From: Eledone cirrhosa
Taxonomy: Eukaryota
Assembly (NCBI GenBank): GCA_964016885.1
Contig: OZ024740.1
Span: 60,822,001-60,886,000, forward strand
Length of the DNA stretch: 64,000 nt
Direction of reading: 5' to 3'
This document shows, piece after piece, positions 11,529 to 38,520 of this stretch; the first letter of the stretch is position 1, and every line of letters begins with the position of its first letter. The translations under genes were made by a program, and so were the position numbers. The notes beneath the pieces are model-generated. The model had not been told where the DNA came from. It searched no databases and saw only the letters and a program-made list of their open reading frames with translations.

Positions 11529-12161
11529 TATTTGTAGGATTTGTACTGGAGGATGAATATTTGTAAATATTTGCAGCAAAGTAAATCTTTAATTTTTAAT
11601 GTAATGCTGTCATAGTCTTGTTTTTCACTTTTTTAAAAGAATGAAACAAAACAAAATTCAGAATTCAAGAAAACTCGTGATGTCCTAAATCAACAATAAT
11701 TGATCCATTGGAGAGTTTCAAGATGAGGTCAATTAATTCAGTTGCCATGAGGAATAAAGAATCTAGTTTTATGGGTCACTATCCATCATCTGAGAATCAG
11801 GAAGAAATAGAGAGTATTGTTTTGGTTGTAGGCCAGCAACCAAATTGAACATATCGCTTTCTCTTTCTTCTTCACCCATCCTAAACGGACGGTAGTCCGT
11901 TTAGTAATATTGTTGTGGTCGTATTTTCGTTGGCAATCGTTTGTTTACGACAGTACAGCGCGGCTCTACTTTATTTAACTGAGATAAAACTTATATGAGC
12001 ATGAACAGTAGATCATTACGCATCTTTTGTCTTAAAAATCTAGAAATTTGGTCCAGCGGGAAAAAGTTTATAATCAAAGTTTGCTGATAAATCTTGTGTT
12101 CAAGTGAGTGAGTAGTAAGCGTGACGCTAGGGGAGGTAATTACGAGTCTCTCTCTCTCTAC

Positions 12162-12285
12162 GGGGTCATCCAGAAATGACGAATTTTTTTCGGCGGAACT
12201 CTTGTGATTGTGATTACGTTAGTCAAATGTAGTCAAATCGCTGAATCCCCTCCTCCTAATTGACTACGTCATTTCTGAATGGCCC
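12162..12285. mobile_element. Short MITE nested in the Helentron-like element
   Basis: TIRs ggggtcatccagaaatgacg / cgtcatttctgaatggccc. Confidence 0.7.
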
Positions 12286-12900
12286 TACTTGCGTCAGTGT
12301 GAAACATTACTTCACTTTTCACTGCTAAAATGATTTTTAAATACTTCGTTAAAAATTTATGTTTATTATCAAAGCTATTTTTTGTACCAATCTATCAATA
12401 GTTTGCGAAAATATAGGTAAACATGTGAGTTAAATTTTTTTTAATCGCATCGATCGCTTTGTCGCACCGACTGTGACACTGTCTGACTGTCTGTCTGACT
12501 GTCACCTTTGTCGGACCGACACCTTTGTTCAAGCGGACAACTTTGTGTCACTGACACTTTTGTTCGTGCCGGCATCTCTGCGAAACACCGATGGCAACAA
12601 CCAGACCAAAATTTCACTTCATTCTTCATTTTTCTTCAAGACCGATTGCCGACCGATCGTATCGGTTGCTCTTCATATAGCAGGTATTCAACAGATAGTT
12701 TGCACTTCTAGTATTATTAACAGTCGTGCGATTTTTTGTACCAATAGGTGCGAATAGTGCGCTCTATTTTTGTACTGATAGGTGCGCATAGTGTGATAGG
12801 TGCGAATAGTGTACAATATTTTCTGAGATTTGCATCCACTAATTTCGCTTAATTAAAAATGATGTTTCACGGCTTTTTGATCGGCTTATTCATTTTTTCC

Positions 12901-13654
12901 ATGGCACAGAAATGGAGTATTTCCATTTCAAATCAAAACTTTTCACTAAAATCGGGCAATTGGACTGATCAAATTCACATTCATGCCAGTTTTTACAAAT
13001 CCATAATTAAAAATGTGGCGAAATCGAATGACCAGAAGGTATAAAAATATTAATTCAAATGTATTTACTTATCATACCAACAAAAATACTTAGATATTTT
13101 GTATACCTGGGGCCCGTCAGGGCCAGGTAATGTTAATCGCCAACATTGTTATCTGTTGTCTTTTTGTGAAAGTATTGGTGGTTCATGTCGGCTCTAATGA
13201 TCTGAATCCTCGTCGCACCGTTGGCACTACAAAGCTGTGCAAAGTAATACAATAATTTTTGCCCAAGTATTTTTTATTAATCATTTATTTGTAAATTAAG
13301 GACAAAGTGCCCATTCGAGGCACAAAACCGGAAAAACAGGGGAAGAGTTTCTTTGCAAGGCTTCAGAAAATAGCGGAAAAGCACCACTGTACACCCATTT
13401 TCTACAGTGGTGTCATTCCACGTCCACAAAGTGTAATTGAAAATAAAAATGACTTGGGCAAGAGAAATTCTCGTTTGGAAAAGTTTAATTACTGCATGAA
13501 AGAAATGATTCAAAAGTTGAACTTGCCCAATCTTCACAACATTTAAAATTGGTCAAAATTTGACAAATCTGACTTCAAACCAGATATGATTCATTTGAAC
13601 AATGTTGGAAATCTTAAATTGACACAAATTTTTGCCAATGTTTTTGCCACCTGA
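12901..13654 (+). pseudogene. SGNH/GDSL-type esterase gene with two tiny introns (13039-13093, 13244-13300) and one in-frame stop (13544-13546)
   Basis: Spliced translation gives ...SIIKNV...IFCIPGAR...VVHVGSND...SGVIPR...FNYCMKEM...DMIHLNNVG, i.e. SGNH blocks II, III and V with a degenerate block I. GT-AG boundaries restore the frame. AATAAA at 13692. Confidence 0.75.
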
Positions 13655-13834
13655 TCCTTGTTCTATGGCTGACTGACTAATTTTGTGACTTAATAAAATG
13701 TCATCATACTAGTAATGCAAAATGGTCATTTTTAAATTTAAATTTTATTAAATAGTTGTTGCTTGCATTGCCTTAAAATAGTAACAAGAATGTACACATA
13801 CTTTTTAAAAATACATCATTATCAGTCAAATCAG

Positions 13835-14194
13835 TCAAATGTCACTAAAAGCCAGGTGGTCGATAACAACTTCTATAAGATTAGTTACATGCTCACACAT
13901 TGGATCACCTCTCATCAATGGCATTGGGTGTCTGAGATAATCGTGGAGATAACTGATGAAGTCACAAATGAAGTGATGGTCTTCCAGTGTGAACAACTCC
14001 CTATATCCATTGATATATGTGATGGCTTCCGATTCATAGGTGCATTTTATGAGGAATTCCATGCATCCGATTTTCAGTGATTCAATGGGCATTTTATCAG
14101 AGATGATAAGGTATTTGACCACGTTTTGCTTTGTAAGTAAATTGGAGAGAATCACTGCAGTCAAAGTCATTTCTTTGCATGGGTTTTTGTCCAT
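13835..14194 (-). CDS. 119-aa ORF resembling a BTB-associated BACK domain (SPOP C-terminal-like)
   Basis: ILSNLLTKQNVVKYLIISDKMPIESLKIGCMEFLIK follows the LxxxNVxxxLxxADxxxxxxLKxxCxxFI pattern. ORF intact. Possible 43-nt GT-AG intron at 14196-14238. AATAAA on the minus strand at 13744-13749. Confidence 0.5.
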   Translation of the reverse strand: MDKNPCKEMTLTAVILSNLLTKQNVVKYLIISDKMPIESLKIGCMEFLIKCTYESEAITYINGYRELFTLEDHHFICDFISYLHDYLRHPMPLMRGDPMCEHVTNLIEVVIDHLAFSDI

Positions 14195-14469
14195 TCTAAA
14201 AAGTTAAAATGATAAAGTATTACTACTATATAACTTACATCTATTGTTGTAACACCATTGAAATGCACAAGTTTCACCAATTCACTATTATGCACTAATC
14301 ATCTCAAATGCATTCATGATTTACTAGCTTTGTCATTAAGCCAGTTGCCTCAACTAGATTGCAATTATACTCAAAAGAACTTTAAAATGTCAATCACTTG
14401 TCAGTAATTCACTATGATCATTTAATTATTAGATAGTTGTTGCTTGCATTGCCTTAAAAAATAGTAGAT

Positions 14470-15423
14470 CAGATAGAAAAATGCGTACAGCAAAAAAAAA
14501 GTAATATTGTTGGAATATAAACCTTTAAAGATACAGGACAAGAAACTAAAATAAAACTTTAAAGAATTGGACAAGAAATAAAATATTTTACAATAATATT
14601 AGTGGCAAAATTTTTTTATTCGTTTCCTGTGCTATGCCCCAGTATTTTCTTGCTTAGTGCATAATAATTGTCATGCTCTCATTGTGCGTTGACCCTGAGC
14701 GGTTGGTTCTGGTTGGGGTTGGTTGGCTGAGCAGTTCTGCTCCGTCAGAATGACCATTGCAAGAAGAATTGGCCGATGCAGCTGCAGCTCTCCTCCAAGA
14801 ATGCACTTCTGGTCCCGTAACACCAGACGAAGATGGAGAAGACGACCGGGACAAGATGTCGACTGACAGCCGATTACAGCACCTCCCTCAACCACCGGTC
14901 CTCCCTCCCTCTGTCCCGCCATCCCTCCAGTCCTCCTGCTCCCCCTTCCTGTACCAGAAAGCTGTGGCACGCATTCATCTGGACTGCCGGACTTGAACTC
15001 AAGGACAAGATGCAAGGAGAAGATGGACGGGTTGGTCAAGATCAAGGATGAGCGGGACGACAAGACCGTCTGCTGCTTCTCAAGATCTGTGCTCATGGGC
15101 CCATGGGTCCATTCACATTATGCATGACACATGAGGCGTGTCGCCGAATGATGAAACATGGGTATGGTTATGGCCCAATTGGTGTTCAAACCAGGATCAA
15201 ATGATCCCCCCGGTCTGACGACGACCTCTGAATGTGGAACCCAGAGCCTATGAATGTGGAACTCGATTTTTTACCAATAAAAATTTTGCCACTAATATTA
15301 TTGTAAAATTTTTTATTTCTTGTCCAATTCTTTAAAGTTTTATTTTAGTTTCTTGTCCTGTATTTTTAAAGGTTTATATTCCAACAACATTACTTTTTTT
15401 TGCTGTACGCATTTTTCTATCTG
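14470..15423. repeat. ~150-bp inverted repeats (14470-14620 / 15276-15423) enclosing a GC-rich degenerate ORF region
   Basis: Arms are near-identical reverse complements (cagatagaaaaatgcgtacagc... / ...gctgtacgcatttttctatctg). Confidence 0.9.
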
Positions 15424-16092
15424 GTATATGAAGGGCGAAGAGGGCCAAACATATTAGTGTCTTCATTCCTCACATCATCATCATCATCATTTTACGTCTG
15501 CTTTTCCCTGCTTCCAAGGGTGGAACGGGTCCTATTCAGCACAGCATCTCTCCCCTTGTTACGGTCCTTTGTCATCTCCACCGTGAGCTTCAGCAATCTG
15601 AGGTCTGCTCTCACCACCTCCGCCCATGTTTTTCGTGGTCTTCCTCTATTGCGTCTTCCTTCTACTGGCATTTCTCAGTTATTGAATTCTCCTAGTAGCT
15701 CTCCTATACTAAATATTTTCACTAATACTGTCTTCTTAGATGTAACTCCTGTGGAACTTCCACTGCACATATGCTTCATCACTAAACAGAAAACATATGA
15801 TCAACTGATGAGATGGTAACTTATTTCAATTAATATCTTATTTTGATTAATATCAACAAATCACTGTTTAAACCCTTTCGATACCAACCCATCTTAAACT
15901 ATTTTGAAATTTTCCTATTTAAGTTAGGACCTCTTGCCCTCAGCTTTGATCTGACATGTGCCCACTTTGAAGTGATATGTGCTCACTTAGAATTACAAAT
16001 GTGTGAAAAGAGAAATATCTTGCAGTATTAAGCCCCTACTGGTATTTTGGTACTCCACTTGGTATTTTGTATCTCACAAAACTTATTAAATA

Positions 16093-35522: not shown

Positions 35523-38520
35523 TAATAATGATTTCATTTATTGGCTACAAGGGCCGACATATAGGGGACAATACAAAGACACGGACAATGGAGGTTTACA
35601 ATAAGATTGAGTAAGAATTAACAATGAAAAAAATATAAAAATAAAATATGTATAAAAATAAAATAAATTCCCCAATGAGGTGAACCACCCAGGGGCGACT
35701 TAGGTAACCCACCAATCCTGAAATACCCGACGCTTCGAGTGCACTGGGTAGGGAACCTCTCTCCTCCTCAAATTAACCAGCCTACAGGCGCATGATCAGA
35801 TTAGGCTCACTCACACGGGCCATTCTCGTCACATTCACCCACCTTTTAGCAAATGTACTGGGAGAGGGGGGTAACACTTCTCTCTCCACCATCGCCTTCC
35901 GTTCCAAGTGAAACTTGAAAAAGTTGATGAGGGATTGGCCGAAGAGAAAAGTGTGTCTTCAGTCCTTTCAACCTGGACCACCATACAACCTCTTTCGCTA
36001 CCGCCACCAGACAGAGGAAAATTGCCTGCCCTTCCTGGCCAAAAGAAGGTGGCGGGTTGATCTTCACTAGGGAGTCGGCCGATAGCCGGATCCTTTTACA
36101 CGCGACAAAAGCTGTTCGACATAACTCCATATGTCAGTAATGCACGGACACTGGACGAGTGCGTGCAGAACAGTTTCATTGCTCTGTGCGCATCTCGGGC
36201 AGGTCCGTCGGACAGCACTTCCGTGTCTCTAGCGTTTATCTCGAACCGGCATTGCACCCTCGAAGCACTGCCAAGCGAGGGATTTCTGTAAGTTATCGAA
36301 AGTTCTCCGGAACAGACTGGTCAGTTCTACTTCGTCGACACCCAGAGCATCTCCGAGAGCGTCGTCGCACTTGCCCACCACTAATTCTCAATAGAACTCG
36401 GCAGTAGAAGTTCCACTGGCCGCATTGCTCGCCTGGCAACATTCCAGATACCAATCACCCAGTCTCGGTCTCTGCTTGACACCCAGGACTGCAGCTCAGT
36501 CAAAGATTGCGCATCATTAGCCACGACATACCCAGCCCTCCATGTAGAGGGTGTTGGCAGCAGATTGACCTCCTCACTCCTCACCAACGGAACCTGTCCT
36601 CTCCACAAGAAGTTGAAGAGGAGCCGTTCCAATTTGGCGAGGCGCGGACGGGGGAAAGGCACGACAATCAGGCGGCAGTAGATGACGGAGGCGATGTACG
36701 CATTCGCCACCTCCTAGTGACAGCTTGCTCGCAGCCCATTTTGGGGTGAGACTGGCTATCCTGATCGTCACCTCATCCCAATTCTTATCCACCTGGAGGT
36801 CTGATCGAACCAAACCCCGAGCAACTTTACCTGTCCGTCCGTTCAGCGCTCGATGACGCTGTTCGACGGGATGGACTTGCATCTCCAGGTGCCGAGCTGC
36901 AAGCCCACTGACTTTTCCGGGTTAAGTTTCGCTCCCGTCAACCTTTCATATTTCTCCAATAAGGTGCCGACCACCTCGATTTCCGAGGTGTCCGACATCA
37001 TCATGGTGATGTCGGCCGCATAATCCGATACAGCCCTTCCGTGTCCCGGTTCGATCAGGATGTCCTGCAACAGCTCCAGCTTCCACAGTAGTGACTCGAG
37101 AGAAGGGAGGAGGAGAGCACCCTAGACGGACAAATTGGAAGATCTGAAACGGTTCCAAGAGGTGGCCATTAACTTTGACTACCGAGCAGATGCCGCTGTG
37201 CATTACAGCCATCCAACTTCTGAAGACGGGGCCGAAACCTGTTGTTTTGAGGACAGCCTTGAGCTACCGATGGTCGACCCTATCGAATGCTTTCGATTGA
37301 TCTAAATTGATCGGAACACCACCGAAGCCAGGTTTACACCCTACCCTCTCTATGATGTATCGCATGAAGTGGAGGTTGTCATGTATGGACCTGGTCGGAT
37401 TGCACAAGTTTACGCCTCCCCAACCAAATCCTCGATGACAAGCGCCAACCTCTTGGCTAACATTGACCAAAATCTTAAACTCTGTGTTGAATAGAGTTAT
37501 GGGCCTGAAGTTATCTAATGTGTTCCTCTTGTTCTCGTCTTTCCTTATTAGCGTCACTACGCCCCGGCTCACAGAACTGGGAATACTCCCGTTCTGCTGC
37601 CAGTTGCAGTAGAGCGCTTCGAGGAGATCCGAAAACAAGTCTAGCATAAAGCTCATAGGGCAATCATCCAAACCGGGTGACTTGCGCCTCGTGCAGACGA
37701 CTGGGACATCCTGAGTTTCGGCTGAAGTTATTGGCCTTTCGCAGCGCTCAGCGTCGGCCATTGAGAGACGCGGTATGCCGTTTAGGTAGGGACTGAAGTC
37801 CGCCACCGTCTCTGACCCGCCACTCCCTCCGAACAACTGAGCAAAGTGCTGGCGAAAGGCTTCACACATCCGCCTGGAATCGCTCAGCTCGTGTCCGTCT
37901 CGGCCGTCAAAGATCGAATTGTGGTTTTATTACCACGCTGCGCCTATGCCACGCGGGCCCATCAAACAACTTTGATTCCCTCATTTCTCAGAGCACGCAC
38001 CTTAACTCTGACAATGCAACCTTCGTGTTTTGATTTGAAGAAATGGTCTAAAACCATTTTCGCTTCTAACACGCCAGTTTCAAAGCCACTACAAATAGTC
38101 TCGTCTAGCTTAGCTACCAGCTCCTCCTTTTTAAATTTTTTTCTAACGCTACTTCTTTGCTAAACCCTATCGAAATTACTTTAATCTTTCTTCTGAGAGC
38201 CCCCTACTACCTGTTATTCACCCCACCCACCCCCGTCAACTTTTGCTTAACTAAATTGTTGACCCGGTCACTCTAAGCCTTACATGCCGGAAACGACATG
38301 TTCAGCTCCCAGTAACCAAGTCCAAACCTACGCGTCTTATCTAGGTCGACCATACAGATCACAAACTTGTGATCTGAATAGGCGACCGTTTTAAAATGTG
38401 GACAGCCTACGCTATTCCTAACTATTTTCCTAATGAAAATCCCGTCTAAATACGATCTAATGACTCTATGCGGTTCTACAGGTCCGCATTAGCACATTAG
38501 GGAAATTTAGTCGGTACCTG
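35523..38520 (-). mobile_element. 5'-truncated L1/Tx1-clade LINE ORF2
   Basis: SDHK endonuclease end, KSPGLD, FRPITLFNTEFKIL, DQSKAFDRVDH, YAADI, LNPEKS and FNFLWRG. The 3' tail has AATAAA near 35535. Confidence 0.9.

Follow-up and report, generated by a model that had tools for sequence, protein, structure and literature searches.

The window, a 64,000-nucleotide stretch of the Eledone cirrhosa genome (contig OZ024740.1, positions 60,822,001 to 60,886,000), features a genuine, mobile element that is bounded by a TC left end and a CTGG right end (Table 1). The element is a discrete CpG-rich island, as an initial annotation made from the letters alone had described it, with a CpG observed/expected ratio of 0.77 inside, compared with flanking values of 0.19 and 0.25, and the ratio is highest in the left 1 kb (1.31). 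The same annotation placed the ends at 11867 and 15464; the junctions of the copies move them to 11879 and 15424. The junctions read A|TC...CTGG|T, the A preceding TC in 65 of 66 copies and the T following CTRG in 66 of 66, and clean paralogous empty sites (e.g. L014, L025, L034, L050, and L052) reveal no target-site duplication. Both termini co-occur genome-wide at 870 candidates, as had been predicted; 39 of these were scored and most are near full length with 92–97% identity, and the exact left-end 27-mer has 315 genome matches versus 0 for the reversed control. A probable host intron had been proposed as the insertion site; host genes around the element were sought by Pfam search of the flanking ORFs of at least 78 aa, and 0 of 83 matched.

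Table 1. Features of the element in the window (window coordinates).
Feature	Position	Strand	Details
Non-autonomous element, whole	11879..15424	+	3,546 bp, TC...CTGG; flanked by host A (11878) and T (15425); from junctions and empty sites
Left-end hairpin	11881..11904	+	10-bp stem, GGTA loop; z -6.0, 0/200 shuffles equal
Left subterminal inverted repeat (subTIR), 13 bp	11903..11915	+	from sequence; partner 15382-15394
RepHel-UCH transposase ORF, first 48 codons (remnant)	12859..13002	+	same sequence starts the RepHel ORF in L071
Deletion junction	13002..13004	.	lacks ~8.98 kb that the full-length copy has (remaining RepHel-UCH, NADAR half); frame kept at the GDS serine
NADAR-SGNH gene, 3' half	13003..13654	+	exons ..13038, 13094-13243, 13301-13654; Lipase_GDSL_3 E 0.0045, below cutoff
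Predicted GT-AG introns	13039-13093, 13244-13300	+	from sequence
Convergent AATAAA signals	13692..13749	.	plus strand 13692-13697, minus strand 13744-13749
119-aa ORF, no homolog found	13835..14194	-	bracketed by 34-bp direct repeat 13745-13778 / 14426-14459
Pre-arm motif TGCCTT(A/G)AAAA and spacer	14426..14468	+	last base A, which would pair with target T; seen in all four families
Inner arm	14469..14615	-	inverted copy of last ~146 bp: subTIR, 34-bp repeats, CTGG end
Loop between arms, GC-rich (third ORF of the initial annotation)	14616..15278	.	no homology to sister-family loops
Outer arm / right terminus	15279..15424	+	34-bp tandem repeats, subTIR 15382-15394, CTGG end; without short 3' hairpin

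The two ends of the element are built differently. The left end features a hairpin, the stem of which shows a compensatory G-C swap in a sister subfamily, and a shuffle test for a short 3' hairpin at the right end gave a z of -0.5. The subTIRs are short and asymmetric, and are present in three related families (A', B, and C) as well as in the window family (A). The ends had been called DINE-1/Helentron-style, a description that does not fit a hairpin on the left (z -6.0), none on the right, and an A|T rather than a TT target.

The window copy lacks Rep and helicase, as initially annotated. Long copies (L071+L072 and the reverse of L105+L106) have the same two termini and carry a Rep/PIF1 transposase, and the window element is an internal-deletion derivative of a 12.6-kb Helitron that has lost ~9 kb. 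A single ~9-kb deletion in the parent yields the window copy. Its ORFs do not come from independent insertions, and the early reading that it derives by deletion from a large rolling-circle element holds. Profile searches of the parent transposase identified Helitron_like_N (E 8e-24), DUF6570 (E 1.9e-14), PIF1, and UCH domains, in the order DUF6570-Rep-PIF1-UCH, with the ORF terminating in UCH. Longer copies with Rep, helicase, and endonuclease had been anticipated; the Rep and the PIF1 helicase were found, and an AP endonuclease domain (Exo_endo_phos) was not found among 11 transposase ORFs scanned. The Rep motif 2 region contains F-W-R, with RGAP where the Helentron signature has RGSP. With no endonuclease domain found, an AT target, and a left-end hairpin, the Helentron/DINE-1 label is not supported. 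DUF6570 in a transposase is a marker of HLE2 (PMC11417382), and these domain markers suggest that the parent is likely an HLE2-type Helitron. Among 11 long copies examined (9 of family A and 2 of A'), family A has no fully open RepHel, and the best RepHel belongs to A' and has one stop. Family C features copies that are ~99% identical and a long open RepHel.

The plus-strand cargo gene is best understood from the long copies, where a predicted 335-aa gene with four introns, mostly of 54–57 nt, joins a putative NADAR half to an SGNH half. Three successive exons match the NADAR model (PF08719) at positions 4–67, 81–116, and 118–162 with E-values of 0.003, 0.049, and 0.0012, each under the 35-bit cutoff. 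The spliced model of the long copies contains the GDS, G, GxND, and DxxH blocks, all four in order, which we take to identify an SGNH hydrolase. In the window copy the NADAR half at the N terminus is gone, block I is altered by loss of the GD in GDS, and the gene is joined to the transposase start; a premature TAA (13544-13546) in the SGNH frame occurs only in this copy. The plus-strand SGNH gene claimed for the locus is thus upheld in its SGNH-type exons and GT-AG introns and not as an intact gene. A candidate 46-nt intron at 13127-13172 was rejected, since its splicing breaks the frame and read-through keeps GxND in frame. Searches with SGNH exon 3 turned up no homologs of greater length, and a PDB search gave no relevant match. 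The contigs of two sequencing runs, of unrecorded kind, contain no joints at the predicted introns, a result that has no bearing on expression.

The convergent poly(A) signals noted earlier are present, together with a further AATAAA at 15276, and the minus-strand ORF is indeed open over its 119 codons in the window copy. Its proposed BACK-like identity found no support: Pfam gave no BACK at E ≤ 1, and PDB sequence searches gave 0 matches at E ≤ 10. There were also 0 matches in 1.84 billion representative proteins, a comparison with the Atlas gave helical-repeat leads only (best score 0.81), and the single-sequence AlphaFold model (pLDDT 37.6) was not good enough to search for related folds. 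The accessory ORFs have pN/pS values of 0.80 and 0.66 among copies, versus 0.25–0.29 for the transposase, and thus appear to drift near-neutrally. What had been read as a third GC-rich ORF remnant is really the loop of an inverted repeat, whose sequence is not conserved. A truncated SGNH gene, near-neutral accessory ORFs, and an unconserved third ORF do not support an intact cassette of three genes; in the short copy the cargo ORFs ride along as passengers, and the copy in the window is itself a dead one.

The initial annotation missed a 147-bp inverted internal copy of the right end, the inner arm, which forms an arm-loop-arm structure with the terminus. Of 853 matches to the terminus across the genome, 405 are inner arms. 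In a sample of 40 left-end loci chosen regardless of interior, 31 have a right end, and in 27 of these 31 an inner arm could be detected; the sample's five multi-copy deletion classes all retain it (5/5). L024, L055, and L057 keep a right end but have each lost the inner arm through a separate deletion, so the inner arm may not be strictly required. Of the 99 copies that could be classified, one has the loop inverted. Rare variants common to both arms of one copy number 15, versus 7.5 in shuffles (p 0.002), and repeat-unit counts agree between the arms in 39 of 77 copies (p 0.04). Most arm variants are unshared, however (15 of 131 inner-arm variants are shared within a copy), and this weak concordance in variants and repeat counts led to rejection of the idea that the arms are rebuilt at every jump.

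The same arm-loop-arm layout is found in all four families of this genome. The three related families have transposases that are 50–87% alike and arms of 130–220 bp. The inner arm matches its own terminus at 97, 100, 82, and 100% in the four families, whereas arms match those of other families at 60–66%, or 87–88% for A and A', the closest pair. An A precedes the inner arm in all four, and the loops are unrelated between them. Outside this genome, the search covered 22 of 80 metagenome loci, which are fragments; right-end arms were seen in none of the 22.

The window element is most probably a non-autonomous HLE2-type copy that is moved in trans by RepHel-UCH, with the inner arm likely folding back to mark where copying stops; from the sequence comparisons we give this reading a probability of about 0.75. 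The family RepHel-UCH transposase would mobilize the short copy. By analogy with Helraiser (PMC4778049), RepHel would nick at A|TC, peel off the plus strand, cut at CTRG|T, circularize the product, and insert the circle into an AT target. Marking the start and bringing the two ends into contact would fall to the left hairpin and the subTIR pair. Since the right end has no short hairpin, we infer that the two arms pair into a stem of 130–220 bp reaching exactly to the terminus, the inner arm serving as a putative fold-back terminator in place of the usual 3' hairpin. With an A just before the inner arm in each of the four families, pairing would restore the CTRG|T cut site in double-stranded form. 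The arms would stay similar through repair or conversion inside the stem, which would at times also flip the loop.

Three other explanations were weighed. The inner arm could be a relic, left when the same Helitron inserted itself in reverse near the right end and kept similar by passive gene conversion, with no role in transposition. The inner arm does have the ending of a real terminus, at an A|T site, the one flipped loop shows that arms recombine, three copies do without the arm, and self-insertion has been proposed for Fusarium elements (PMC5148889). However, the arm holds the same position after the TGCCTT motif in four families with transposases down to ~50% identical, it persists while the loops turn over completely, and every amplified deletion class retains it where almost all else is lost, all of which makes a relic unlikely. 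Far less probable is an independent, MITE-like origin of the arm-loop-arm module (0.95 kb), which would have inserted at the right end or become fused to it. The module does have terminal inverted repeats, and its GC-rich interior differs from the remainder, but none of 103 interiors examined stands alone with host DNA on both sides, the arms hold the partner of the left subTIR, and each family's arms match its own left end; this reading is largely refuted.

The short element might instead spread through useful expressed cargo, namely the chimera of transposase start and SGNH and the minus-strand protein. The reading frame continues across the deletion, with a serine still in place at the GDS motif; of 43 junction copies, 29 have the spliced chimera open throughout, the minus-strand ORF is open in 47 of 67 copies, and the poly(A) signals are paired. 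The element copies are ~98% identical to each other, however, so that open frames are expected anyway; the pN/pS values of both ORFs, the premature stop in the window copy, and larger deletion classes that lack these ORFs and are as common or more common (13, 7, and 7 of 40 versus 7 of 40) also argue against useful cargo, which is improbable.

The fold-back reading bears on how HLE2 Helitrons define their ends, as the termination evidence in the papers covered comes from the HLE1 element Helraiser with its 3' hairpin (PMC4778049). The four families combine HLE1-like junctions and the lack of a 3' hairpin with a conserved, concertedly evolving fold-back of 130–220 bp. More tentatively, and at somewhat less than even odds, a whole-right-end complementary copy could have replaced the 3' hairpin in a UCH-bearing HLE2 clade, where it would rebuild the cut site and co-evolve with the terminus, and end-finding software would miss or mis-bound such elements. 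The near-identical copies of family C and their long open RepHel make the terminator hypothesis directly testable.

As in the Helitron superfamily generally, an HUH Rep and PIF1 partner shares the termini and target duplication is absent. The window family has the HLE1 ends (5' TC, 3' CTRR, and an AT target), and like Helitron1/Helraiser it has A|TC...CTRR|T junctions, no duplication, and a transposase on the TC-to-CTRR strand; it differs in having no 3' hairpin 10–12 nt from the end and in possessing subTIRs, a 5' hairpin, and DUF6570 (PMC4778049). Helentron/DINE-1/HINE elements share the 13-bp subTIRs, internal tandem repeats, deletion derivatives, and F-W-R before Rep motif 2, and differ in the endonuclease (not found here), the TT target, the left hairpin seen here, and the Ser of RG(S/L)P, in whose place the window family has Ala (PMC4067079). 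The architecture of DUF6570, Helitron_like_N, PIF1, and UCH is that of HLE2 subgroups c/d with UCH (PMC11417382), and many database relatives at 32–46% carry it. Typical HLE2 elements have a TT target and a 3' stem-loop, to which HLE2-reverse and proto-Helentron are the accepted exceptions (PMC11417382), and the layout of these exceptions is found in the window element and in families A', B, and C.

HLE2-reverse elements (FoHeli3/4/5 of Fusarium oxysporum) resemble the present families in a 5' hairpin, no 3' hairpin, DUF6570, a length of 9–11 kb, and an asymmetric inverted repeat of 13–16 bp with its 3' copy 20–40 bp from the end; they have TGCCT...CTCCTGT ends, no established target preference, and, in the passages covered, no long inverted right-end copy (PMC5148889, PMC11417382). 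Their host is fungal, unlike Eledone cirrhosa. Proto-Helentron from Phytophthora infestans shares an HLE2-type RepHel without endonuclease, a CTAG 3' end, A/T insertion without duplication, a 5' stem-loop, ~12-nt inverted repeats, and accessory ORFs, but it has a 5' TT, a left TIR ~3.6 kb from the stem-loop (adjacent here), and SET/TIR cargo rather than UCH and NADAR-SGNH, and no fold-back arm is described there (PMC4067079, PMC11417382). HELIANO reported no element similar to proto-Helentron in 404 sampled genomes (PMC11417382). With the present families, the HLE2 layout that combines an AT target with a 5' hairpin is no longer confined to oomycetes and fungi.

In the literature covered, which excluded Repbase, Dfam, and paywalled papers, no description was found of a long inverted right-end copy or of NADAR in a Helitron, and NADAR, PF08719, and GDSL gave 0 matches in the captured-domain table and supplement of PMC11417382. 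Texim genes of fish Helitrons are likewise intron-bearing SGNH hydrolases (PMC4021074), a likeness by description, and NADAR is transposon cargo in Ectocarpus Gypsy and oyster Tx1 elements (PMC12477816); the predicted fusion of both in one gene differs from these and is an addition to known Helitron cargo. The inverted right-end copy is more unusual than the SGNH cargo, for which texim provides a precedent.

The window, located on C1 of the 3.0-Gb genome, contains a young dispersed repeat. A repeat search of the genome with this stretch gave 870 candidates; most of the 39 scored are near full length at 92-97% identity, and the mean pairwise identity is 98.2% (15 copies aligned out of 20). The left-end 27-mer has 315 exact matches in the genome (control, 0). 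Among 66 distinct copies having both ends, the base before TC is A in 65 and the base after CTRG is T in all 66. Candidate paralogous empty sites, looked for among the fetched loci, were obtained for 27 of the 66, many of them uninformative (TA)n runs and two with small gaps; several clean sites (L014, L025, L034, L050 and L052) have no duplication. Because the A|TC and CTRG|T junctions recur and these empty sites lack a duplication, the ends are placed at 11879 and 15424 with target A|T. The initial annotation of a Helentron-like element at 11867..15464 was thus correct as to a mobile repeat with recurrent ends, but not as to its boundaries. At the left end, a 13-bp subterminal inverted repeat (subTIR) comes after a 10-bp hairpin (z -6.0), and the partner of this subTIR sits 30 bp from the right end; a hairpin was looked for at the right end of the window element and none was found (z -0.5). 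The element is a non-autonomous Helitron derivative with a probability of about 0.95.

Features of the window and of other loci (L-numbers) in the same genome; A, family of the window element; A', sister subfamily; C, related family
Locus	Coordinates	Feature
Window	13745-13778, 14426-14459	34-bp direct repeat flanking the minus ORF; includes conserved TGCCTT motif
Window	13835-14194 (-)	minus ORF, 119 aa
Window	14469-14615	inner arm, inverted duplicate of last ~146 bp of element; 98% over 123 nt
Window	15492-15674 (-), adjoining the element; 35800-38000, in GC-rich block	candidate, presumed LINE-like remnants; no Pfam match at E 0.001 among those scanned
L071	3-207	frame that the long copy has inserted into, presumably hAT-type transposase-like
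L109	1950-9185	A' transposase, ~2,410 codons, one stop only
L110	1071-1688	A' loop with open Cys/His-rich ORF, unrelated to window loop; presumably PHD finger-like; no Pfam match
L124	~1320-2350	minimal ~1-kb derivative; left subTIR joined straight to inner-arm subTIR
L150-L155, L158-L189		family C, very young (~99%) HLE2-UCH Helitron; long open Rep-helicase frames; abundant ~3.6-kb deletion derivative
L164-L169	G000:C4, ~352.06-352.26 Mb	six C copies, spacing about 28-55 kb
L172, L178-L179, L163		family C; duplicated left hairpin, insertion nested in another copy, or end-to-end copies

An SGNH match 10.5 kb away from a left end allowed long copies to be traced (L071+L072, and the L105+L106 pair read in reverse, which spans 12,628 bp with both ends). 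Their transposase features Helitron_like_N, DUF6570, PIF1 and UCH domains, and its database relatives (32-46% identity; those named mainly animal) mostly have the same domains. The window copy is this parent less ~8.98 kb, which bears out the earlier proposal of a deletion derivative of a large rolling-circle element; of the Rep, helicase and endonuclease anticipated in longer copies, the first two were found and the endonuclease was not (no family match in 11 ORFs scanned). Across the deletion junction, the reading frame runs on from transposase codon 48 into the serine of the GDS motif in SGNH. Most of 40 left ends, sampled irrespective of interior and with near-identical breakpoints pooled, belong to one of five deletion classes with more than one copy (13, 7, 7, 7 and 2 members), and the window copy's class holds 7 of the 40. 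Around residues 125-133 the L109 transposase has what we take to be a 2A-like E-L-N-P-G-P motif with Cys replacing the usual Asp; the motif also occurs in family A, and none was found in B or C.

In long copies, the SGNH exons make up the 3' half of a single putative NADAR-SGNH gene with four predicted GT-AG introns (three of 54-57 nt, one of 213-217 nt), and the predicted spliced frame of 335 aa is open in one of three copies modelled. Three successive exons match successive stretches of the NADAR profile, every match being below cutoff. Of 43 window-type copies, 29 keep the chimeric transposase-start/SGNH frame open, but in the window copy a TAA at 13544 breaks it; the SGNH esterase gene annotated initially holds as SGNH exons and not as a complete gene. 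The pN/pS among copies is 0.80 for SGNH exon 3, 0.66 for the minus ORF and 0.25-0.29 for transposase segments that take in a diverged subfamily. The minus ORF has no detectable relative in Pfam, PDB sequences or 1.84 billion proteins and structure prediction gave no usable fold; its description as BACK-like finds no support in these results. In subfamily A' the 34-bp repeat occurs once, and neither the NADAR-SGNH ORF nor the minus ORF is present. The available text of PMC4021074 describes an SGNH gene in fish Helitrons, and that of PMC12477816 describes NADAR in retroelements.

The terminus 18-mer has 853 exact matches genome-wide, 405 in inner-arm context, so nearly every right end is accompanied by an inner copy. 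Among the 31 right ends of the 40 loci sampled by left end, 27 come with a detectable inner arm; in three copies separate deletions have removed it, and the fourth probably has a mutated arm. None of 103 examined cases is an arm-loop-arm module standing alone, and of 99 copies that could be classified, one has its loop inverted. Rare variants common to both arms of one family A copy number 15 versus 7.5 by chance (p 0.002); most arm variants are confined to one arm and repeat counts are concordant in 39 of 77 copies, which argues that homogenisation is occasional and does not accompany each jump.

The A' transposase is 85-87% identical to that of A in nucleotides, and A' features a left hairpin with a compensatory base-pair swap, a CTAG end and arms identical across ~170 bp. 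Family B (transposase segments 36-67% identical) has arms of 133-148 bp, and A|TC with the hairpin in two of three copies. In family C, where the transposase is ~50% identical and the copies are ~99% alike, A|TC with an 18-bp hairpin is present in 10/10 and CTAG|T in 12/12, and the 40 scored copies have arms of 220 bp. When the last 100 bp are compared in one copy per family, identity between the inner arm and its own terminus is 97 (A), 100 (A'), 82 (B) and 100% (C), versus 60-66% for the termini of other families (87-88% between A and A'). The loops are unrelated in sequence, those of B and C having no ORF exceeding 62 codons, and TGCCTT(A/G)AAAA plus an A lies directly ahead of the inner arm in all four families. 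Judged from sequence, the four have one common layout, known here from a single genome. The most promising candidate for an active element is family C. The identical right flanks and the spacing of L164-L169 indicate a tandem segmental array and not separate insertions, and the arrangements at L172, L178-L179 and L163 are self-insertion footprints.

The arms may act as a terminator by folding back, for which the odds are about even: the outer arm of the displaced strand would pair back onto the inner arm, and the resulting long stem, flush with CTRG|T, would stall the helicase and offer the second cut. The main rival, following a model in the accessible part of PMC5148889, is that the inner arm is a functionless reverse self-insertion; such a relic is harder to reconcile with an arm that recurs across families and is retained. 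For Helraiser, the sections available of PMC4778049 report an essential left end and termination of transposition by a 3' hairpin; the window element is alike in junction chemistry and transposase orientation, whereas the 3' hairpin is missing. For Helitron2, pairing of asymmetric repeats has been proposed to set the endpoint (PMC3627910, partial text).

According to the portion of the HELIANO study available (PMC11417382), DUF6570 marks HLE2 and UCH occurs in HLE2 subgroups c and d, and these domain markers would place the window family in HLE2. Literature searches turned up no account of an element with a long inverted copy of its right end, though Repbase, Dfam, supplementary figures and papers behind a paywall may contain such elements; the parts available of PMC13085455 and PMC6431247 describe none. 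The junctions behave like those of Helitron1. In contrast to Helentrons, no endonuclease was found and the target is A|T, not TT, which argues against the DINE-1/Helentron assignment made initially. HELIANO, in the same portion, reports no proto-Helentron-like element among 404 genomes. As far as the available texts describe them (PMC5148889, PMC4067079, PMC11417382), the layout matches that of HLE2-reverse elements of Fusarium and proto-Helentrons of Phytophthora.
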